Source of the DNA: a virus
Lineage: Duplodnaviria > Caudoviricetes
DNA: 37,554 nucleotides
Virus record (IMG/VR): IMGVR_UViG_3300047545_000175
Location: 1-37,554 of that record
Direction: 5' to 3' (one strand)
In this document: positions 7,865 to 36,333 of the stretch, in pieces
How positions within the stretch are numbered: the first letter of the stretch is position 1
Layout of the letters: each line of letters begins with the position of its first letter
Position numbers and translations under genes: made by a program
The notes under the pieces: model-generated
Seen by the model: only the letters and a program-made list of their open reading frames with translations
Databases searched by the model: none
What the model was told of the DNA's origin: nothing

Positions 7865-8350
7865 TTAAGATTTGGCGTAAGCGCCGTGATACAAAGAGCG
7901 TGCTTCAGTTGCGACAAGTCCAGCCAACTCCAAGTCTTTGAAGTAGCCGATGATGTGACTTTTTCCGTCTTTCATTACTCGAACATACCAAGATTTTGCG
8001 TGTTTGTGCCAATTCACGCCGGGGTATCCGCTTTTATTGTTTGATAACGCAAAGCGATTGCATTGGTTTTGGCTTCTGTTTGCTGCCCTAAGATTTTCAA
8101 GACGATTGTCTGCCCTGTTGCTGTTAATGTGGTCAACCTCTGGAGGCAAATAACCGTGTTCAAGCAAGAAAATCAAGCGATGCACCTTATGTGATTTGTT
8201 CAACCATGTCACATAGCGATAGCCAGTTGGGTGCATTGATCCAGCCTCTTGTCCAACAAGGCATTGCTTGTTAGGGTGTGCGACCTTCTTCCAGTAAAGT
8301 TTGCCGTCACGGTACTCAAAGTACTCGGCTACAAGTTGCTGTGTCGTCAT
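7865..8350 (-). CDS. HNH-AP2 homing endonuclease
   Basis: [33 protein letters not shown] followed by an AP2-like domain. Confidence 0.9.
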
Positions 8351-9705
8351 GCGTTTGCCAGTGTTGTCACTGTTCCAGATGAGCCACGATATTTGAGAGC
8401 ACCAGCCTCAACGTACAAAGTACCACCAGCGATGTTTCCTGTTGGCGCTGTGCCGTTGTAAATCACAATGGCTTTTGCTGCGCTAGTTGGGTCAGATGTA
8501 CCACCAAGCAACAAGTTACCAACAGCCGACAGGGTCAGCGCCTGAGTAAAGCTAATAGCGTTACCTGCTGTGCCGGAGGGGGCGGTGTACCAGAGATGTG
8601 CGCCACCTACTTGACCATATGCGGCAGCGAAGTCTGAATTGATATAACGGTTTGTCCCGCCAGTATCGTTGTAAAAGTTTGCCCCAAGGAATGTATCGTT
8701 AGCGCCGTTGTTATACAAAGCAGTGCTTAATACTTGAAATGCTTTGAAACCACTTGCCCAAGCACTCGGAGTAACCCCCAAGCCGAGGTTGCCGGAGGAG
8801 TCGATGGTGAGCCTGTCTGCTGCATTGGTTCTAAATACAAGGTTAGCAGCGTAGTTGTTCCCTAAATAAGAAACACCAGAAAACTGAAACAAAGCAAGTT
8901 CTGTTAAGGCTGCACCAACTTTAAAGTCCGTTGCCCTAGCAGAACCATTTACATCCAACTTATAAGCAGGCGAACTCGTCCCAATACCCAGACCTGTGCT
9001 GGTCAGGCGCATTTGTTCGGAGCCAACTTGAGTCCAGATAAAGCTACGAGCCGTTACGCCACCATCAGTTGAATCAAACGTGACACCAGTGTTTTCCGTT
9101 ACCTTGACTGTGTACTCAGTACCAGCACCAATGGTTGCATTTTGGCGAAGACGCACACCAACCACACCATCAGCAGCGTCTACATCAAGCACGCCAGTAA
9201 CACCAAAATTTGTCCCATCAAACGTCAGCGCAGACCCAGTGGTCAGGACTTTGGAGCCGTTGAGGTAGGGGACTGAATTTGCGGTTGCTCCAGACAGCGT
9301 TACAGCGCCAGAAGCAGACAGCGTAGTGAAAGCACCAGCAGCCGCCGTAGTGCCACCAATAGCAGTGCCGTTGATCGTGCCGCCAGTGATTGCTACGTTC
9401 GCCAGAGCATCTTGCTCTATTGCGTTGTTTAACTCAGCCCTGGTAATGGTCTTGAGTGCTGTTGCGCTTTGGTCGTAGATGAAAAACTTGTCATCAGAAG
9501 CGGTAGAAGCACCATCAATTGATGACAGACCAGAAGTCGTGACGTTAGCCAAGTTCTCTTTTGCAAGAGGATAACCACCAGCCAAAGTACCGTCATGGAT
9601 GACAGCCGTGTCTTTTGTGGTGTCAATCGTGAGTTCACCCTCAAGACCAGTAAAGGTTGAGTGTTCTGCGGTAGTTCCGCGCCGATGTTGGACAGCAGTA
9701 GTCAT
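8347..9705 (-). CDS. Tail fibre protein with Mtd-N-like N-terminus
   Basis: [26 protein letters not shown]-terminus; Gly/Thr-rich; RL...GLGIGTSSP fibre repeats. Confidence 0.8.
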
Positions 9706-20340: not shown

Positions 20341-22473
20341 TTAGGCGATGTCTGCGTCACCCAAGCAGAACGACACGGCGTGACGGACAGCCACGTCAAC
20401 CGACTGCATTGCAACGATACGGACAGTGCCAGTAGTCGAAGCAGTGTAGGGGTCAACCAGGATGTCCAAACCACCCCACATGCCGATCAGCAAGTCGGAG
20501 AAGTTACCGAAGTAAGCATCACCAGCAGCAACTTGGTTCGACACAATGGCGCGATAGCCGTTGATCTGACCGTCTTGCAGCACGAACTGACCAGAGCCGC
20601 TGTCTTTGGTAGTGGTCTTCAGAGCACCAGCCATCGAAGCGTTCATGATGTAGGCCAAGTTGCCCAACAGAGCGTTGTCGGTGGCAACTTCAGTCTCCAT
20701 GCCAACGATCTCAGCGAAAGTTGGGTTAGTGGCAGCGAAGTCTTTGGTGTTGATGCCAGAGGTGGCGCGGATACCAGTAGGCTGACCGTTAGAGCCAGTA
20801 CCAGCCAAAGCACCCAGGTCAATTGCCAAAGCCAGAGCTTGAGCCAAGTCGTTGCGGATCAGGCTTTCCACATCGGGCGAACCTTGCATCATCAACTGAC
20901 GAGTCACATCAGTGAAAGCGCCGACAGTCTTGGGAGCCATAGTGATCGAAGTGATCCCCATTTCGCTCTCAGCAGCAGCAGAGCCTTCAGCAAACCAGCC
21001 ACCAGACGAAGCAGAAGACTTCTTAGGAATCTTCACGTTGCCAGACAGACCAGTCAGCATGGTTGCACCAGCTTGCATCACGCTAGAAGCGTTACGCAGA
21101 ACGTCAACGAATGCGTCAGGACGGAAGTTCTGACCAACCAGACCAGCGTCATCAGAGCTGTTCAGGTCACGCTTGTCCCATTGACGCAGAACGTCAGCAG
21201 GAACCAAGATACCTTGAGCCGATTGACCGAAGGCGCGTTGAGCGGCTTCAGAGCACTCGAATTCAAAGGCAGCAGCACGTTGTGCGGCGCGGTCAGTAGG
21301 GTTAGCCAAGGCGTTGATAGCACGCATCAGGCTGAAGCGTTTAACTTCAGTCTTGCTCATACCAACTTCTTGCACGGGAGCGTCAAAAGCGCGGCTGTCA
21401 ACAGCCACTTGCACAGAGTTTTCCATTTTGGTTTCCTTTGGGGTTGCAACTTCAGTTTCCACGGCGCGGATTTCTTCAGTCACAGTTTCGGTAATTTGCG
21501 GTTCTTCAACCACAGCTTCAGAGATGACTTCCTCAAGATTTCGACCCACGCCTACGGTGACATCCGCAGGAATAGAAACGATACTTGCCTCCATCGGTCG
21601 CCACGCAACAGCGCGATATGTCCGACCGTCTTTTTCCTTCTGCATCTTGCCGATGGAATAGCCAATCGAGACATTACCGCGGATGTTGTCAGCAACATCA
21701 CCGTACACCTCTGAAGCCAATGCGCTCTTACCGAAACGCACTGTCGCCCGCAACTTGCGAGCCGAGCCATCGAGGGACACGGATTCAATCACCCCAATCT
21801 GCTTTTCAGGATCATGGTCCAGCAGCAGGGGTGCACGACCAGAGTTCAGAAAACTCAGGTCAATAGATTGTTCGGAGTGGTCAAGCACCTCGGAGCCATA
21901 AGAACGCTCCACAGGTGTCTCAGACGAGATTGCCATGCGAACACGGCGGTCATCTTCAACCACAGCTTCCATTGCGTCAGAGCGTGTCAGGCGTTGAGCC
22001 TCCCGGCGTTCTGCAACAACTTCTTCAGGAATAACGACTTCCTCAGAAATCACTTCCACAATTTCATCAGTAACGGGATTTTCCATCACAGACCTTTCAA
22101 GTTCGTCTGATTTTAACAACTCTTTTGTTTCAGGAATAGTGTTTTCTTCCATAGAGCGATCTGATTGGATTTTGGCATATTCTTTATCTGCCCAAGACTT
22201 ACCAGCATCACCACCCCAAAGTGACCACGCAATACGACCATTGGATGGATAACCTTCCTCGCCAGGACTGAAGCCTTCAGCCTGTTTATCAACTTCATGG
22301 CGAGCAAAGAAACTGACCATCCTGCCAATAGTGTCATCAGACAAGTCACGACCATTTACGATGTCTCTTGCTCGAGCAATGCCAACTTCTGTGCCGCCAC
22401 GACCAAACTCATCACGCCAGTCAAGACCGCGCTGTGCTTCTTCCTTCATTGACTGATTAGGCACTGGCATCAT
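20341..22473 (-). CDS. Fusion of an N-terminal domain, HK97-type prohead protease and major capsid protein
   Basis: SSETPVER, PLLLDHD, VSIGY, EASIVSIPAD protease motifs followed in frame by an HK97-fold capsid (APKTVGA, FGNFSDL). Confidence 0.9.
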   Translation of the reverse strand: MMPVPNQSMKEEAQRGLDWRDEFGRGGTEVGIARARDIVNGRDLSDDTIGRMVSFFARHEVDKQAEGFSPGEEGYPSNGRIAWSLWGGDAGKSWADKEYAKIQSDRSMEENTIPETKELLKSDELERSVMENPVTDEIVEVISEEVVIPEEVVAERREAQRLTRSDAMEAVVEDDRRVRMAISSETPVERSYGSEVLDHSEQSIDLSFLNSGRAPLLLDHDPEKQIGVIESVSLDGSARKLRATVRFGKSALASEVYGDVADNIRGNVSIGYSIGKMQKEKDGRTYRAVAWRPMEASIVSIPADVTVGVGRNLEEVISEAVVEEPQITETVTEEIRAVETEVATPKETKMENSVQVAVDSRAFDAPVQEVGMSKTEVKRFSLMRAINALANPTDRAAQRAAAFEFECSEAAQRAFGQSAQGILVPADVLRQWDKRDLNSSDDAGLVGQNFRPDAFVDVLRNASSVMQAGATMLTGLSGNVKIPKKSSASSGGWFAEGSAAAESEMGITSITMAPKTVGAFTDVTRQLMMQGSPDVESLIRNDLAQALALAIDLGALAGTGSNGQPTGIRATSGINTKDFAATNPTFAEIVGMETEVATDNALLGNLAYIMNASMAGALKTTTKDSGSGQFVLQDGQINGYRAIVSNQVAAGDAYFGNFSDLLIGMWGGLDILVDPYTASTTGTVRIVAMQSVDVAVRHAVSFCLGDADIA

Positions 22474-24538: not shown

Positions 24539-26389
24539 TTAACGCCATCTGTTCACAAAGCTACCCATATTTTTAGGTCGCTGAATTGGCTTTTGCTCTT
24601 TGACCACCTCTTGCGCCTCTTTTCGATGACTCATTTTCATAGCCAAGCTATTCAAATTGACATTCAATAGAGCCAAAGCAGCCTTTGCATACACACGAAC
24701 GTCAAGCGCCTCGTTTCTTGTCCTGATCTTTACAAACTCACGCCGAGCAAAACCTTTGTGGTATTTGATCTTGATCTTTTCAGCAGTAAGTTGCTTGTAA
24801 TACTCAGGATCGCGGCCTTCAGGAAAGTGACAGTAACCGGGTCCAGGCTCAGTGATCTTGAATCTTGAGAACAACTCAGCCTTCACCGTGTCAACCCCAA
24901 CAGGGAACAACTTGATCTTACCGATGTTGTTCTTAGATGGCTTGCCAACCATCGGCCTTCCCTCTCCACCTACACCCTTGATTGCAAAAACACGCTTGGC
25001 CTCTCGAGTCGAGACATATTTGTAAACAGCTTGGGTGTGATGACCACCAGAGTCAATGCAAGTAGCCCTGACAACCATTTCTTCACCAAATTCATGCTCA
25101 TACACTCCATAAAGAAACTCATCAAGCTCTCGCCAAACAATCGGTCCAGAGGGGTCGCCATGAATCGTCTTGTAGGCAATAGACCAAGATTCTTCCTCTT
25201 TACCCCAAGCAACAATCTCAGCCTCAAGTCGATCATCCTGAACGTCAACACCTGCCGTCAGAATAAGCCCGTCAGAAGGCACGACATCACCCCAGTCTTC
25301 TGCCCTCTCGGACAAAGAGTAATCATCAACGCCTTCACCGTCTTCTTCCCAAGTCTCAGCAAGGTACGTGTTAACCCAAACTCTCAAGGTCGAAGGTTGC
25401 TTTCTTGCCGCAAGGAAGTCTCGAACTGCGTCTTCCAAAGGAATCCAAGGCGAATACAGTCCAGAAACACAGAATCCAGCGGTCTTGGAGAATTTCTCAG
25501 TAGAGCGCCACTCACCGCGGCGAACAGCACGAGCGCGACTTGCATCATCCCAAATAGAGCCGCAAGACTCACAAGCATAACCAGCACTCTCAGGCCTATC
25601 AGCATCAAACTGAACTTGGCTCCATTTGAGCGTCTGCTCATGACCACAGTCATGGCAAGGAACGTAATAAAGCCGCTTGTCTGATTCTTCATACGCTTGC
25701 TCAATTCTTGAAGCACCCTTGTTTGTCGGGGTAGAGACAAGAATGATCTTGCGATTCCAGAATGTAGCCGAGCGTTTACGAGCCAGCGTTACTGGATCAC
25801 CCTCTGAGCCAGCCGATACAGGAAATCTGTCAACCTCGTCACACAAAACAATACGAATAGGACGGGAAGCAAGAGAAGCAGGACTGTTAGCCCCACAACC
25901 CGTAACGTGACCACCAGGGAAACTCTTATGCAAAGTAGTGTTGCCCGAATCCCGACTTCTAGGGTCTTTGACAAGACCTTGCAAAGCAGGAGTGTCACGT
26001 AACATAGGAGCCAAACGGTCTTTTGACCATGTTTGAGCCATGTCGAGCGTTGGTTGGACAACCAAGATAGGACTTGGGTCTTGGGCGATGTGGTATCCAA
26101 CGACATTATTCAAACACTCCGATTTACCCATCTGAGCGCCCATCATCAAGACAACTGTCTCAATCGCAGGGTCAGAGATAGCGTCCATGATCCCACGCTG
26201 GTACTCAGCTCGAGATGTCTTCCAAGAACCAGGTTCAGCAGAAGCCTCGGGACTTAACTTGCGAAAAGTATCAGCCCACTCACTGACCGTCAGCCTCGGC
26301 GGAGGTTTCAAACGCTTCCTCATCTGAGTCGAGATCGCTCTCCTCAGTGAGTCCTGCTGAATCCTCTTGATTGATTCCGGCAACTTCAT
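24539..26389 (-). CDS. terL: Terminase large subunit, lambda GpA family
   Basis: TVSEWAD, AQMGKSE Walker A, CDEVD Walker B, AGVDVQ, IDSGG, RNEALD; start codon uncertain. Confidence 0.95.
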   Translation of the reverse strand: MKLPESIKRIQQDSLRRAISTQMRKRLKPPPRLTVSEWADTFRKLSPEASAEPGSWKTSRAEYQRGIMDAISDPAIETVVLMMGAQMGKSECLNNVVGYHIAQDPSPILVVQPTLDMAQTWSKDRLAPMLRDTPALQGLVKDPRSRDSGNTTLHKSFPGGHVTGCGANSPASLASRPIRIVLCDEVDRFPVSAGSEGDPVTLARKRSATFWNRKIILVSTPTNKGASRIEQAYEESDKRLYYVPCHDCGHEQTLKWSQVQFDADRPESAGYACESCGSIWDDASRARAVRRGEWRSTEKFSKTAGFCVSGLYSPWIPLEDAVRDFLAARKQPSTLRVWVNTYLAETWEEDGEGVDDYSLSERAEDWGDVVPSDGLILTAGVDVQDDRLEAEIVAWGKEEESWSIAYKTIHGDPSGPIVWRELDEFLYGVYEHEFGEEMVVRATCIDSGGHHTQAVYKYVSTREAKRVFAIKGVGGEGRPMVGKPSKNNIGKIKLFPVGVDTVKAELFSRFKITEPGPGYCHFPEGRDPEYYKQLTAEKIKIKYHKGFARREFVKIRTRNEALDVRVYAKAALALLNVNLNSLAMKMSHRKEAQEVVKEQKPIQRPKNMGSFVNRWR

Positions 26390-26834
26390 TTAGAGCCTCA
26401 TAGATAGCATCGTCAAGGATGCCTTTGATTTCTTTGATGTCTTTTGCAGTGTAGACAAGTCCAGCCACCTTTGACGGGATAGACAACATCTTGGCACGGA
26501 AGTTCGATAGCTGCTCACCAATCTCGTCAGCAACTCGCTCGATCTCCACAACCCTGCCCTGCTCCTTCAAGAGTTCTAGCTCTGCCATGCCAGCCTCTGC
26601 CGCCATCTTACGCCGTTTTCCCTCCTCGAGGTCAATAGCGTCTTGGTTGCCAATCAGGTCGCCAACCTTCTTGCGCTCCATCCAAGCAATCACATCAGAA
26701 GTTTCGTAGTCCGAACCACCCCTTCCCTTGCGCTTGTTCAAGATAGGAAAGGTACTGTCTTTCTGCATCTGCGTCAGCCACTCCTCAGAGCGACCAATGA
26801 TGTCAGCCAGTTGCTTCTTGTTAACAATCATCAC
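26280..26834 (-). CDS. terS: Terminase small subunit (Nu1-like)
   Basis: VNKKQLADIIG wHTH N-terminus; AEAGMAELEL coiled coil; overlaps TerL. Confidence 0.88.
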   Translation of the reverse strand: MMIVNKKQLADIIGRSEEWLTQMQKDSTFPILNKRKGRGGSDYETSDVIAWMERKKVGDLIGNQDAIDLEEGKRRKMAAEAGMAELELLKEQGRVVEIERVADEIGEQLSNFRAKMLSIPSKVAGLVYTAKDIKEIKGILDDAIYEALNEVAGINQEDSAGLTEESDLDSDEEAFETSAEADGQ

Positions 26835-26839
26835 TTCTC

Positions 26840-26970
26840 CAGTTGCCTATTTTTTAAGCAGTTGCCTATTTTTTAAGCAACTTTCTGTCTTTTTCAGGTC
26901 TGTCTTAACTTTACACCAAAAATCCTTGAACACAAGTACTCATGCTGTGTTGCTTAATTTTTAAGCAGTT
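26840..26970. repeat. Three quasi-palindromic repeats (candidate TerS-binding cosB sites)
   Basis: CAGTTGCCTATTTTTTAAG in tandem at 26840 and 26859; TGCTTAA-TTT-TTAAGCA at 26951. Confidence 0.65.
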
Positions 26971-27028
26971 AGCTTTTGCCTATGGGATACAAAAGACTGA
27001 TTGTGAAAACCTATCACTAGACTTTTAC

Positions 27029-27072
27029 GGGGGTGCGAATAACCCTCAATCGCCGTTTGGCCCAGAGGACCC
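27029..27072 (-). other. Predicted cos site (cosQ plus cosN)
   Basis: Minus strand GGGTCCT (identical to lambda cosQ), then about 20 bp later the dyad GGGT-TATTCGC-ACCC, about 200 bp upstream of terS. Confidence 0.7.
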
Positions 27073-27077
27073 GCGAA

Positions 27078-27196
27078 TGTGGATAACTTCGGCCATTTCG
27101 CGCAAAAACTGTGGATAACTTTGCAGATTTTGGCCCGAATCGCTCGAATCGCCAGGTTGTTCACAGGTTGAATACAGGTTATCCACAAAATCCACA
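27078..27196. promoter_or_regulatory. DnaA-box cluster (left)
   Basis: Perfect TTATCCACA at 27078(-), 27110(-) and 27179(+); degenerate boxes at 27157 and 27188; CAGGTT repeated every 11 bp. Confidence 0.75.
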
Positions 27197-27430
27197 TAAT
27201 CCGCCCCCGTTTTGCGAGTTGGTTTTCTCCCTGGCGTTTGATTGATAACCCCGACTTAATCCCCGCCCGGTTTGGTTGTCGTTGTCGGTTGGTTTGGCCC
27301 CAGCTGATCCCCGGGTTGTTGCATGCCCGGTTGTTTGCCCCGTTTGGGGCCATTGGCGGGGCGATTGTTTGCACCTATATAAGACAACCCAGGCGGGTCA
27401 ACCCAGCTGCACCCTAACTGTACAAAATTA

Positions 27431-27450
27431 CATTAGGGTTTGTCCCTATA
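27431..27450. promoter_or_regulatory. Operator-like palindrome
   Basis: TAGGG-TTTGT-CCCTA; shares CATTAGGGTTTGT with 1517. Confidence 0.55.
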
Positions 27451-27523
27451 GAATTTTTTGTGGACAACTGCGACATTTGATGCACGGGTTGACGTTGGCC
27501 CGGGTCATTTGTAGGGGTTGATC

Positions 27524-27691
27524 ATGTTTCATCAAATTTTTGTCGGGTTAATTTGCGCGTTTGGGGTTGTTTTGTTTGCTATTGGCGCGCTGGGTTTGGC
27601 ATTGGGCATCGGCCCGGTTTTTATGTCGTTGGCAATGGCAATTATTGGCGGGTTTGCTGCAATTGGTTTTTCTGGTTTGCTGGGGGATTGA
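27524..27691 (+). CDS. 55-aa two-TM membrane protein (not in ORF track)
   Basis: GGGG RBS; MFHQIFVGLICAFGVVLFAIGALGLALGIGPVFMSLAMAIIGGFAAIGFSGLLGD. Confidence 0.6.
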   Translation: MFHQIFVGLICAFGVVLFAIGALGLALGIGPVFMSLAMAIIGGFAAIGFSGLLGD

Positions 27692-27693
27692 TC

Positions 27694-27894
27694 ATGTTTT
27701 TCATTTTTGACTGCGACAACAACATTGTGGGCAATCCTAAGGGTTACAAAACGCACCGGGGCGCGCAAACACAATGCAACTTGGACAAAAGCAAACCAAC
27801 CAAAACGATGTCACTTTTGTGGGATCGATTCCACGCAAAAGCCCAATTGACCGGGGTCAAAAGCCGAATTTATTCGATCCGCTGGGTTGACTGA
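27694..27894 (+). CDS. 66-aa hypothetical protein
   Basis: GGGG RBS; MFFIFDCDNNIVGNPKGYKTHRGA... Confidence 0.7.
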   Translation: MFFIFDCDNNIVGNPKGYKTHRGAQTQCNLDKSKPTKTMSLLWDRFHAKAQLTGVKSRIYSIRWVD

Positions 27895-27916
27895 AAAACA
27901 CAATAGGAGAAAACAA

Positions 27917-28789
27917 ATGCAAATTAAATCATTCAAAAACGCACCTAAGTTTGCAAAGTTGCAGCAATTAGCAATTGCCGTGCAAACGGGGGATGATCAT
28001 GTTATCGCCCGTGCTTTGCTTCAATTGCAGTGTGACCCGGACTTTTCCGGCCCGGGTTGGCAAACCAACTTGAACAAATTGGCAAACGTGTTTGCTAGCA
28101 AAGCCCCCGTTTTTGCCGTGTTTGCGCTGGGGGGAAATAGTAAATTGCCGTTTGTATCGTTTTCCACTATTCCCGGGGTCACATGCCCCGGGGCGGGGGA
28201 TTGCATCACGTTTTGCTATTCCTATAGGGCTTGGCGATTTCCGGCCGCATTTGCGCGCATGATCCAAAACGCCTATTTGATGCGGTTTGCCCCGGATCAA
28301 ATAGCTATAGCGTTTGCAGCGATTGCAGCAAAACGGCCCGGGGGGTTTGATTTCCGTTTGTACGTTGATGGGGATTTTGCAACCGGGGCCGATGTAGCGT
28401 TTTGGATGTCGTTATTAGCATTAACCCCGGGCGCACGTGCATACGGGTATAGCAAATCTTTTCATGCATTGCTGGGGTTTGACGTTGTCGGGGTTTGGCC
28501 CACAAACTATCAACTTAACATTTCCGGGGGTCACAATGCCCCGCAAACGGTTGTTGATGCGGTTAAGCAATTGCCGATCACCCGGGGGGAATTTATCGCG
28601 GTTTCGATTGGGCGCAAAGTAAAAAGCACGGATCATGGCACCCCCAGCACGAACGCTGCAATCCGGGCCAAATTTCCGGGGGTCAAGGTTTTCCCGTGCC
28701 CGGGGGAATGCGGTACATGTACGGGGGCGGGGCATGCATGCGGTTTGCCCAAAATGAAAAACCGCGTTATCGCGATTGCAATGCACTAA
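27917..28789 (+). CDS. GP88-like Cys-cluster (radical-SAM-like) protein
   Basis: AGGAG RBS; GNSKL, TCPGAGDCITFCYS, RLYVDGDF, YGYSKS, CPGECGTC....HACG. Confidence 0.7.
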   Translation: MQIKSFKNAPKFAKLQQLAIAVQTGDDHVIARALLQLQCDPDFSGPGWQTNLNKLANVFASKAPVFAVFALGGNSKLPFVSFSTIPGVTCPGAGDCITFCYSYRAWRFPAAFARMIQNAYLMRFAPDQIAIAFAAIAAKRPGGFDFRLYVDGDFATGADVAFWMSLLALTPGARAYGYSKSFHALLGFDVVGVWPTNYQLNISGGHNAPQTVVDAVKQLPITRGEFIAVSIGRKVKSTDHGTPSTNAAIRAKFPGVKVFPCPGECGTCTGAGHACGLPKMKNRVIAIAMH

Positions 28790-28800
28790 TGGGGCCAACA

Positions 28801-28974
28801 ATGACCAATCAACAAATTTGCGATTTTTACGACAACAACCCAAACCTTACATTAGCCCAATTAGCGCAAATGCTGCGTTTGTCGGTTGACCAACTAAAAA
28901 CAATCCTACAAACCCCGCCCCCCGTGCAAACGTACGGGAGAAACCGGGGCCGATCCAACAACTACAGGGGATGA
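28801..28974 (+). CDS. Small HTH-like protein
   Basis: GGGG RBS; YDNNPNLTLAQLAQMLRLSVDQLKTIL. Confidence 0.65.
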   Translation: MTNQQICDFYDNNPNLTLAQLAQMLRLSVDQLKTILQTPPPVQTYGRNRGRSNNYRG

Positions 28975-28976
28975 TC

Positions 28977-29198
28977 ATGGGCAAATTTTCTGACATCGAT
29001 TTAGAATTGACGTACGGGGCAAAACCAACAACAACCCCCCGGGTTGGATCTTTTGGGGTTTGTTTGCATGATCCCAACAACCCGCCCCGGTTTTTTACGT
29101 TGTTGCAGCTGATTGGAAATATTGGGTTGTTCGCCCCGGTTGATGACCCAGGATCCATCCTACAATTTGACGTTTGCGATTATTGGGAATTGACGTAA
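28977..29198 (+). CDS. 73-aa hypothetical protein
   Basis: GGGGATGATC-ATG start; followed immediately by a terminator. Confidence 0.6.
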   Translation: MGKFSDIDLELTYGAKPTTTPRVGSFGVCLHDPNNPPRFFTLLQLIGNIGLFAPVDDPGSILQFDVCDYWELT

Positions 29199-29199
29199 A

Positions 29200-29240
29200 A
29201 CCAAAAAGCCCCCGGGTAAAACTGGGGTTTTTTTGGCTTT
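29200..29240 (+). terminator. Rho-independent terminator of the island operon
   Basis: CCAAAAAGCCCCCGG-GTAAAA-CTGGGGTTTTTTTGG. Confidence 0.75.
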
Positions 29241-29263
29241 GCTAAGTAAGTGAGCGCACACTT

Positions 29264-29700
29264 CAGATTTTGGCCCGTTTGCGGGGTTGTTTGGGTTTTG
29301 CTGGGGATTGGCCCGGGTTGGTTGTTTGGCCCGTTTGCGGGGCGATTGGCCCCCAGCGATTGGGCGATTGTTTGGGCGGGGGTTTGGCCCCGGTTGGTTT
29401 GGCGGGTTTGATTGGCCCGGGGTTTTGCTGGGGTTTGATCCCTGATTGTTTGTTTGGCCCCGGTTGATTGATTCGGGCGGGGTTGATGCAATTGGGGCGG
29501 GTTTGGCCCGATTGGTTGATCCGGTTTGCTGGGGCGATTGGCGGGGCATTGCAGCGATTGGGGCGGGTTGGTTTGTGGGTTGACCCCCGACAATTGGCCC
29601 GTTTTGGGTTTAGTTGGGGTCAAATTTTGCGGGTTTATCGGTTGGGGTTGTCGGGTTGGTTGTCGGGTTATATGATAATCGCCCCGATAATCGGCCAATA
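29264..29700. repeat. G/T-rich low-complexity non-coding tract
   Basis: Very few A on the + strand; recurring TTGGCCC, GGCGATTG and GGCGGG words. Confidence 0.7.
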
Positions 29701-29725
29701 TCGGTTTTGGCTGCGTTTGGTCAGG

Positions 29726-29930
29726 TTTTCCACATAATCCTGTGGATTTTCTGTGGAAATGCCGGTTTTCTGTGGACATTTTGCGGTTTTCTCGGCGGTA
29801 CCTGTGGACAACCTGTGTAAAGCCTGTGGATCGATCTGTATAACCTGTGAACAAGCCAAAAATGGCAAATCGAGCCAGAAATTCCCAAATTTTCCCCTAT
29901 AAAGTGCCCGTACCAAAATTTTGTGGAAGT
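29726..29930. promoter_or_regulatory. DnaA-box-like cluster (right)
   Basis: TTTTCCACA at 29726; TGTG(G)A-type boxes at 29741, 29752, 29771, 29803, 29814, 29825, 29846, 29922. Confidence 0.65.
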
Positions 29931-29970
29931 TCCAAATTTCCAAATTGGTACGAAAATTTCTCTCTTTGCT

Positions 29971-30780
29971 TCAGTACCAGCGAGTTCCCTTGACTGTTGT
30001 GTCAAGAGTTCTCTGAATGAAGTTTTCTCTTGCTTGAGCTAACTTGAGTGGAAACTGGTCTTTTGCTGTCTTTTCTGCCACGCCGTAGAAGTCGTAGCGT
30101 TTGCGATAACTTGCCTTGGGTGCAAAGAACATGACTGGCTTGATTGCCGAGCCAAATGCTGTCTTGTATCGCGCCCAGATGCCTGACTTCAAATGCTGGA
30201 CTTTTTCTCCTGTCTTCCAGCTACCTTGTCCAACCCGTGATTCGCCCTTGCGAGCCACAAAATATCTGGCTTTGTAGTTCTGCTTGAGATTACGGGCTTT
30301 GGACTTCTTTGTCTCGTTCTGCTGCGATCCAGACAGGTAGAACGCCTGAAGCTGCGACAGAATTTCGACAATTTGGCTGGGAGACATATTCCCGTAGGAA
30401 TTTCGTCTTACCCCTGAGCCTGGTGCTGGAACTGTGATTTCGTTTGTACCGAGTACGCCAATACGTCTGAGCATGAACTCAAAACGCTTTTGTGGACGGT
30501 TTCCACCGTGTATTTGGGGTAACAGGTAATGGAAGTTGCTGTCTGAGTTCTTGACCGCAACGTAAGCCTCAATTTTCGCCAATGTTGCGTATCGGTAGAA
30601 GATGCTGTTCAGGGTGTATCGAGTTGGTCTGTCGAACACCTTAGTCATCTCTGCTCTTTGGGCATCCCTGATCTCAAATGCTGTTTTGTTGAGTGCAGAC
30701 ACAAAAGCAGATACTTGGCCCTTCTGAATCTTCTTCAGGGCAGTCTTTACTGATGAGATGTTGGAGCCAAGTTCAAGCAT
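29971..30780 (-). CDS. Putative neck/tail-completion protein (HK97 gp10 / lambda Z-like)
   Basis: ALNKTA...VFDRPT.YTLNS motif; basic; YRKRYDFY near the C-terminus. Confidence 0.6.
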   Translation of the reverse strand: MLELGSNISSVKTALKKIQKGQVSAFVSALNKTAFEIRDAQRAEMTKVFDRPTRYTLNSIFYRYATLAKIEAYVAVKNSDSNFHYLLPQIHGGNRPQKRFEFMLRRIGVLGTNEITVPAPGSGVRRNSYGNMSPSQIVEILSQLQAFYLSGSQQNETKKSKARNLKQNYKARYFVARKGESRVGQGSWKTGEKVQHLKSGIWARYKTAFGSAIKPVMFFAPKASYRKRYDFYGVAEKTAKDQFPLKLAQARENFIQRTLDTTVKGTRWY

Positions 30781-30793
30781 GAACCATTATAGG

Positions 30794-30821
30794 AAAAAAG
30801 ACCCGGACTGGATACCGGGTC
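30794..30821 (-). terminator. Rho-independent terminator
   Basis: Minus strand GACCCGG-TATCCAGT-CCGGGTC-TTTTTT. Confidence 0.75.
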
Positions 30822-30835
30822 AAGACTTAGCTCTG

Positions 30836-31342
30836 TTACCCATCTTGGGAGACACAAGACGCAGAGTTTAAGCGAGTAGATTTTACTATCGGCCTTGCTC
30901 TCTTGAGGACAATCTGCTTTGCAACAAAGTCAGCCATGTCCTCAAGCTCTTTGACGATAGAACTTTCAAGCTGCAAATCGTGAACATCCATTGCCAAGTT
31001 CACGGCTTGCATCTCTGGACCACGGAACAAGAACTTTTCCTTCTCAAGTCCTCTTGATGCCATCTCATAAAGCGCGTTCTGTGCTTCTCTGATTTCTGGC
31101 AACCAATCTTTTCCCTTGCCGTGAACAGCGTAAGCCTCACACATATTGAGTGCTGCGATCAATACGTCTATCTGATCCCTGTTTCCACGGCCTTGGACCA
31201 CCTCTGTTAGTGCTGAATGGTTCTTAGCCTTCAGAACCACAATAGCATCACCCACGCTTGCAACTGGCTTCATTCCTGCCAACACCCAATTAACTGCGTC
31301 CAGGCGAACACCCTTTGGTTTGTATTTGCTTTTTTTTCTCAT
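30836..31342 (-). CDS. Hypothetical protein
   Basis: MRKKSKYKPK start, 168-aa helical ORF. Confidence 0.7.
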   Translation of the reverse strand: MRKKSKYKPKGVRLDAVNWVLAGMKPVASVGDAIVVLKAKNHSALTEVVQGRGNRDQIDVLIAALNMCEAYAVHGKGKDWLPEIREAQNALYEMASRGLEKEKFLFRGPEMQAVNLAMDVHDLQLESSIVKELEDMADFVAKQIVLKRARPIVKSTRLNSASCVSQDG

Positions 31343-36290: not shown

Positions 36291-36333
36291 CAATTATACA
36301 GTATAAAAAAAGGGGCCTGTCAAGCCCCTATCT

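Follow-up and report, generated by a model that had tools for sequence, protein, structure and literature searches.

How can a stretch of phage DNA that is present in single copy tolerate palindromes when the remainder of its own genome avoids them? This puzzle is raised by an island of 2.9 kb (positions 27075..29960) adjoining the cohesive-end site (cos) of IMG/VR virus record IMGVR_UViG_3300047545_000175; the window is the whole stretch analysed (37,554 nt), i.e. a complete phage assembled as a circle of 36,304 bp, position 1 reappearing at 36305. A preliminary description had proposed that the block is a restriction-proof leader, injected ahead of the remaining DNA (hereafter the backbone) in a lambda-like cos phage with a GpA terminase. 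Our reading, to which we give a probability of roughly 55%, is that of a portable leader carrying a gene of the GP88 family at the last-packaged chromosome end. In this reading, the leader is likely the first part to enter and likely remains exposed for some time until the remaining DNA arrives; short A-containing asymmetric words, which some host defences read, have likely been removed from it, and its products likely neutralise such defences. The cassette occurs once, between cos and backbone, and points inward, its terminator being followed by approximately 0.5 kb of equally purged non-coding DNA.

The block is genuine, as its anatomy is present and composition changes at approximately 27023 and 29959, in agreement with the limits originally given. 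The possibility that it is chimeric is ruled out, since one contig of the probable source run covers 25500-30946 at flat depth and the arrangement recurs in relatives. Runs from other studies contain the island and its flanks (none of their listed pieces crosses the cos junction), and in one of them the same island has 1,181 nt around GP88 swapped for 1,333 other letters. Contigs of RNA run X3 cover island and flanks alike, timing and strand not being readable from them.

What distinguishes the island is first a loss of mixed purine steps. Observed/expected ratios are 0.37 for AG/CT in 27075-29960 versus 1.02 elsewhere and 0.61 for GA/TC versus 0.98, and the island has 8 GAG/CTC where the backbone rate predicts 73. 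Both strands of the five open reading frames (ORFs) are depleted (32 AG for 100 expected, 37 CT for 101), and silent sites are affected, as GP88 recoded with backbone codon use would hold 103 AG/CT instead of the 39 seen (z -9.8). Amino-acid choice is affected as well, with 1-3 Glu residues in strongly purged clades versus 5-9 in others. The ‘extreme motif depletion’ initially reported is thus confirmed for AG/CT and GA/TC, but it is selective, since CCGG and CCCGGG are enriched. Three other causes were considered. An origin at the mRNA level (ribonuclease sites, internal Shine–Dalgarno sequences) is ruled out because the loss is strand-symmetric and reaches non-coding DNA; avoidance of ultraviolet damage is ruled out by AAA/TTT being lower in only 1 of 45 leaders; and general avoidance of CRISPR protospacer-adjacent motifs is not favoured, CC/GG being enriched.

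The second distinction concerns palindromes. In the window, six-base palindromes stand at 1.06 of expectation in the island versus 0.33 in the backbone; the island holds 33 copies of CCGG and 13 of CCCGGG, for which the backbone rate would give 1.8 and 0, respectively. The leader is consequently not restriction-proof, as palindromic sites are kept.

Both properties extend well beyond this phage. A profile scan retrieved 333 GP88 relatives in viral contigs, of which we kept the best 80, not dereplicated. A terminase gene was seen at 51 of these 80 loci, upstream of GP88 and divergent from it in all 51 and downstream in none; 28 of the other loci have less than 7 kb upstream, and one has 10 kb upstream and no terminase match. 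Five of the terminases are HK97-like and 46 Terminase_6-like, several accompanied by SU10-type portals, in addition to the GpA terminase of the window. The arrangement is hence not a speciality of cos phages with GpA, as had been supposed; even locus L004, with 89% GP88 identity, adjoins an HK97-type terminase, without DnaA boxes there. Cultured phages also carry GP88: in cluster A mycobacteriophages the right end is 2-3 kb away from it, and in many Streptomyces phages it appears twice per record, as in terminal repeats. The back-to-back arrangement is also that of the DSL-LC05 record, whose signature is milder. The cassette is therefore real, recurrent and more general than first thought.

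We compared leader and backbone in the 45 dereplicated loci, out of 57, that offer at least 3 kb of backbone. Asymmetric REBASE motifs were fewer in the leader in 44 of the 45, as were GAG/CTC, and palindromic REBASE motifs were commoner there, again in 44 of the 45. With a trinucleotide null, the asymmetric deficit persisted in 43 of the 45 loci (0.934 versus 1.060), and pooled six-base palindromes reached 1.00 in leaders versus 0.49 in backbones. Codon shuffling gave 1.21 for palindromes in GP88 versus 0.55 in the terminase gene, with the higher value in GP88 at 34 of 37 loci; L165 is a partial exception (0.59 versus 0.29). Tolerance of palindromes is the more robust of the two observations.

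One explanation of these contrasts would be that an ordinary moron was acquired beside cos not long ago and still displays the composition of its donor. Indeed, the cassette is accessory and mobile among backbones: the empty-site relative L042 (8788-10038) lacks it, a phrog_1924-like gene abutting Nu1 there with two DnaA boxes between. However, six close copies have diverged by 24-40% at four-fold sites and nevertheless keep the signature, 44 of 45 loci show the pattern although their GP88 identities range over 45-93%, and the 51 loci with a terminase all agree in position and orientation. A recent import, largely refuted already by these figures, is in our view very improbable. In the same six copies, private instances make up 55% for AG/CT; the share is 44% for TA and 16-28% for each of eight other steps. 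Because silent sites turn over while AG/CT instances are mostly private, the depleted state is being maintained.

A mutational bias acting locally at the chromosome end, which would turn mixed purine steps into runs without any involvement of defence, deserves closer consideration. Indeed, AA/TT and CC/GG go up as AG/CT and GA/TC go down, the leader signal is mostly at the dinucleotide level, and end processing could also erase palindrome avoidance. Yet little or no signature was found in the leader of T7, at the right ends of lambda and L5, in AM24, PAK_P1 and Jay2Jay, or at any of 12 GP88-free GpA loci. Moreover, the effect reaches amino-acid choice, a small excess remains at the motif level, and the avoided words vary by lineage, so that we consider this bias unlikely. 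Other words seen to be avoided are CAA/AAC/AAG, GAC/GTA/ACT, or GAG/GGA with CAG enriched (L010, L018 and L101, around GP88); these lineage-specific words may track the host.

Whether the island can be the first DNA to enter depends on its place in the packaged chromosome. The window has the features of lambda-type cos packaging, namely a small terminase of Nu1 type (26280..26834, minus strand; phrog_57, E 3e-31), a large terminase of lambda GpA type (24539..26389, minus strand; PF05876 and PF20454, phrog_15), a lambda portal and the order cosQ-cosN-cosB. Three 29-nt repeats upstream of Nu1 (26842..26977; family D6), two of which are kept in relatives down to 84% terminase identity, are likely small-terminase binding sites, i.e. 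candidate cosB-like elements. The probable cos cut, which would form the left end of the virion chromosome, lies at 27033..27045 (minus strand), where three related contigs (L019, L020 and L025) start, at window positions 27044, 27043 and 27042, respectively, before running into Nu1. A heptamer at 27066..27072 (minus strand), which we take to be cosQ, is situated 27-28 nt beyond this end, on the right, last-packaged side, and lambda has an identical heptamer 30 nt from the right end of its record. Because related contigs start at the cut and a lambda-like heptamer is placed just beyond it, the island is, on the evidence of contig ends and motifs, the right, last-packaged chromosome end, in single copy. 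We detected no long direct terminal repeat, as judged from contig ends, the three relatives' contigs opening at the cut without a leader copy before Nu1. The kept palindromes can accordingly not be ascribed to such a repeat in this phage, the island being single copy.

The remaining genes (a siphovirus tail, ERF/exonuclease/single-stranded DNA-binding protein, NinB and RusA) complete this picture. Prohead protease and major capsid domains are fused in one protein of 710 amino acids (aa; 20341-22473), and a tail protein at 8347-9705 carries an Mtd_N domain, a reverse transcriptase not being seen among the scanned ORFs. No integrase, methyltransferase, RNA polymerase (in particular of the phage single-subunit type), Ocr or S-adenosylmethionine (SAM) lyase was found among the 64 ORF translations of the window that were scanned. 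The metagenome runs holding most of the phage sequence are freshwater ones; a 6-kb contig carrying a GP88 of 76% identity was placed, perhaps wrongly, in a Polynucleobacter bin.

The operon itself consists, as first described, of five plus-strand ORFs pointing inward between minus-strand genes. Its largest member (27917..28789, plus strand, 290 aa) matches GP88 (PF17338) with 56.6 bits against a curated cut-off of 24.4 (E 4e-15; Atlas 0.97). Invariant residues in 56 GP88 sequences form two clusters, C90/C96/C100 and C261/C265/C268/H273/C275. A search with the structure model (pLDDT 78.9) returned radical SAM enzymes in all of the top nine rows, the best match being spore photoproduct lyase, and GP88 is hence predicted to adopt a radical-SAM-like fold; a sequence search of solved structures gave nothing significant. 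In common with spore photoproduct lyase, QueE and viperin, GP88 is predicted to have a partial barrel whose first strands are followed by a Cys triad. It differs from this superfamily by an identity of approximately 10% and an extra C-terminal Cys/His cluster, and its C90-X5-C96-X3-C100 departs from the canonical CX3CX2C, although non-canonical spacings exist in the superfamily.

A product of this kind could itself have shaped the leader, if it attacked or modified DNA at AG/GA steps, so that any DNA present had to lack them. Such self-protection would fit an avoided motif that is very short and strand-symmetric, a signature that goes with the cassette and not with any cos end, and a best fold match that acts on DNA. 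We nonetheless consider it quite unlikely: in L165, where DUF7227, which aligns loosely with GP88, occupies the GP88 slot, the purge is stronger still (AG 0.21); several GP88-free leaders are moderately purged; and the GP88 or DUF7227 genes of L5, AM24, PAK_P1 and Jay2Jay reside in unpurged DNA. GP88 and DUF7227 are thus exchangeable.

The suggested link with anti-defence functions is supported by the cargo of homologous leaders, which includes families of known anti-defence type. A Pfam scan of 77 proteins (75 of them from the 129 listed) identified, the spurious-looking or less informative rest being left out, ArdC-N at two loci, DUF932 at four, the L5 gp82 family at seven and one borderline SAM-lyase-like gene. 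For the five island ORFs, no homologue of A1/A2, Dmp or Ocr was found in PHROGs, Pfam or NCBIfam. Two neighbouring arrangements may be mentioned: in L183 (4721-5729) a 203-aa gene and a SAM-lyase-like gene stand upstream of an ORF4 homologue without GP88, and in L104 (13134-14639) a C5 cytosine methyltransferase gene lies 2.3 kb downstream of GP88.

Concerning the other genes, all on the plus strand, ORF1 (27524..27691, 55 aa, 76-87% identity in relatives) is hydrophobic and likely a membrane protein, and ORF2 (27694..27894, 66 aa) is a variable slot with one relative at 27%; neither matches a family in PHROGs, Pfam or NCBIfam. ORF4 (28801..28974, 57 aa), the commonest companion gene, whose family is present in 29 of 71 leader loci, looks helix-turn-helix-like by eye and has no Pfam match. 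ORF5 (28977..29198, 73 aa) has nine relatives in viral contigs, and its Atlas matches are all under 0.9. Three of the five ribosome-binding sites (27524-29198) are G-runs without AG, with a common short context before ATG. Upstream of the operon extends an outer A-poor non-coding spacer (27200..27430, plus strand; 64% G+T in 27200-27370), followed by a 15-bp palindrome (27434..27448). The latter, previously termed an operator, does exist and has a similar site in L017 and L002, but it is single, and a related 14-letter pattern occurs at chance level genome-wide (27 versus 21.8), so that its role is at best putative. Promoter-like sites, including one of 9/12 at 27427-27454, are not above chance (3 versus 3.9). 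The terminator, the two G/T spacers and the A-tract repeats are all present as described. The intrinsic terminator (29210..29240, plus strand; 29210-29227 by a narrower delimitation) has a similar hairpin in L017 and L165 and is followed by a single-copy 16-bp near-palindrome (29248..29263), also with similar sites in relatives. The inner non-coding spacer (29265..29720, plus strand; 74% G+T) is still AG-poor and of the same character in all six relatives examined. The A-tract repeats (29860..29959, the repeats themselves near 29885-29945) form the inner edge of the depleted zone, and an Rfam search of the spacers for known RNAs gave nothing near threshold.

It is the comparison with known first-entering DNA that gives staged entry its best indirect argument. 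In T5, the first 10 kb show AG at 0.72-0.91 and asymmetric motifs at 0.81-0.88, and beyond these the values are approximately 1.1 and 1.0-1.2; the step falls at the annotated injection stop (L162 1-10219 being the first-step DNA). We found no prior report of this deficit in open-access literature. T5, the only pausing phage among the named references measured, is the clearest match by analogy, and the island has the same step in AG/GA and asymmetric motifs, which is our own measure of membership and not a textbook criterion. The two also have in common a terminal block, in the island probably an early one, with a sharp compositional edge and, in this phage, a non-coding inner edge with DnaA boxes. 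Unlike the first-step region of T5 and BF23, the island measures 2.9 kb and not 10 kb, is single copy at cos instead of a terminal repeat, lacks A1/A2/Dmp and keeps its palindromes (1.06 versus 0.33, against a reduction from 0.87 to 0.66 in T5), and its DnaA array is not conserved.

This array is central to the full T5-type scheme, in which injection halts at the inner boxes until a leader protein releases it. All four consensus DnaA boxes of the 36.3-kb genome lie at the island ends. The outer cluster (27078..27196) comprises three perfect boxes, the only ones in the window (27078, 27110 and 27179), and two degenerate ones; the inner array (29726..29854), present in this phage only, counts eight degenerate boxes with 1-2 mismatches each. 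The two arrays had been described as inverted, and a 32-nt, 75% inverted repeat does connect them, but orientation is mixed at each end. Inner array and A-tracts coincide with the change point, the compositional step resembles that of T5, DnaA boxes are generally enriched on the terminase side of GP88 (72 in 117 kb versus 25 in 468 kb, with at least two boxes at 13 of 44 loci), and conserved boxes are reported in the T5 stop region (10.1101/866236). However, the terminase-adjoining cassette recurs in related contigs without this inner array, which is absent from all of the 10 closest, so that the idea of a conserved DnaA-box injection stop is not supported; boxes also occur near GP88-free GpA terminases (L042, L061), neither an A1/A2 homologue nor a terminal repeat was found, and even for T5 one paper presents the role of the boxes as unproven and lacking experimental study (PMC10644984). 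A complete T5-type two-step transfer is thus rather unlikely. Because boxes are enriched by GP88 overall, occur at GP88-free cos regions too and form no array in close relatives, they seem to be something that such chromosome ends may have or lack. Clusters of 6-8 boxes resembling oriC were noted in the terminase-GP88 gap of Terminase_6-type phages (L012 2580-2832; L115, L118, L129, L138).

Nine of the 10 close relatives possess at the inner edge, in place of the array, a different conserved A-tract element that is absent from the window: a conserved non-coding element, then phased A-tracts and a short hairpin just beyond the purged zone (L001 2263, L002 3171, L003 2860, L005 2766, L017 3408, L142 1702, L165 2540, L178 1291, L169 801). 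This element is a candidate stop or late-transcription signal.

Other systems offer partial parallels. The early regions of T7/T3 and Murciavirus (Ocr, SAM lyase) likewise consist of inward, variable, first-entering genes, one related leader here having a SAM-lyase-like gene; according to two papers, whether T5-like and T7-like phages are restricted depends on where the sites lie in the DNA that enters first (PMC10644984; PMC12455610), the latter paper dealing with Type I restriction. Unlike T7/T3, this phage has a lambda-type head and tail and no phage RNA polymerase or Ocr, and the T7 leader is nearly without compositional signature. In L5/D29, the right-end Pleft region (gene 88) contains a homologous GP88 (profile E 1e-9), approximately 2 kb from the cos right end, inward and in an early region; two sources describe this end as transcribed early (PMC5712189; 10.1101/2025.11.21.689395). 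Unlike the island, this region is under repressor control, has not been purged of AG/GA and avoids palindromes normally. In conjugative plasmids, the leading regions are also first-entering DNA and share ArdC-N and DUF932 with homologous leaders, but they enter single-stranded and, according to one source, show no general target depletion (PMC13478746). Overall, the cassette would work like a first-entry counter-defence leader, but it falls outside the T5 system.

How such a leader might operate can be outlined. The island end would be ejected first and read by host RNA polymerase, and selection would be exerted by methyl-adenine systems whose sites are asymmetric (Type I, IIG, III and BREX). 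In the most speculative step, GP88, as a predicted radical-SAM-like Fe-S protein, might blunt these SAM-dependent systems, for instance by consuming SAM. Asymmetric sites could then remain in the backbone, whereas palindromes, the targets of SAM-independent Type IIP enzymes, would need to be avoided there all the same. Entry could be paced either by transcription-driven drag or by a stop at the A-tract edge, DnaA boxes being optional.

Several observations weigh against this reading. Although the usual view is that the last-packaged end is ejected first, an in vitro study reports either end being ejected first about equally often (PMC10287942). The argument for staged entry rests on one positive control, and the T5 leader loses palindromes that the island keeps; indeed, the palindrome tolerance of the leader is not explained by the model that we favour. 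Once trinucleotide content is allowed for, a specific deficit of real asymmetric sites remains, but it is small, for which reason we only infer that the pressure comes from methyl-adenine systems, and a letter-permuted motif control (0.717 versus 0.904) does not separate restriction from other processes removing AG/GA.

Searches of the open-access literature returned nothing on a GP88/DUF7227 leader, on what GP88 does or on staged entry of cos phages. A bolder proposal, which we regard as possible but doubtful, is that staged entry is itself a portable module: a GP88/DUF7227 cassette of approximately 3 kb, inserted at the last-packaged end in cos phages and other small ones, would enter alone, held in a state that Type IIP enzymes cannot exploit, while its radical-SAM-like enzyme would switch off SAM-dependent immunity. 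AG/GA loss combined with kept palindromes would provide a sequence-only marker, checked against T5, for the first-entering end of uncultured phages. The cassette would also suggest what kind of function is performed by DUF7227 and GP88, both of them widespread orphan families, GP88 comprising 903 clusters at 50% identity.

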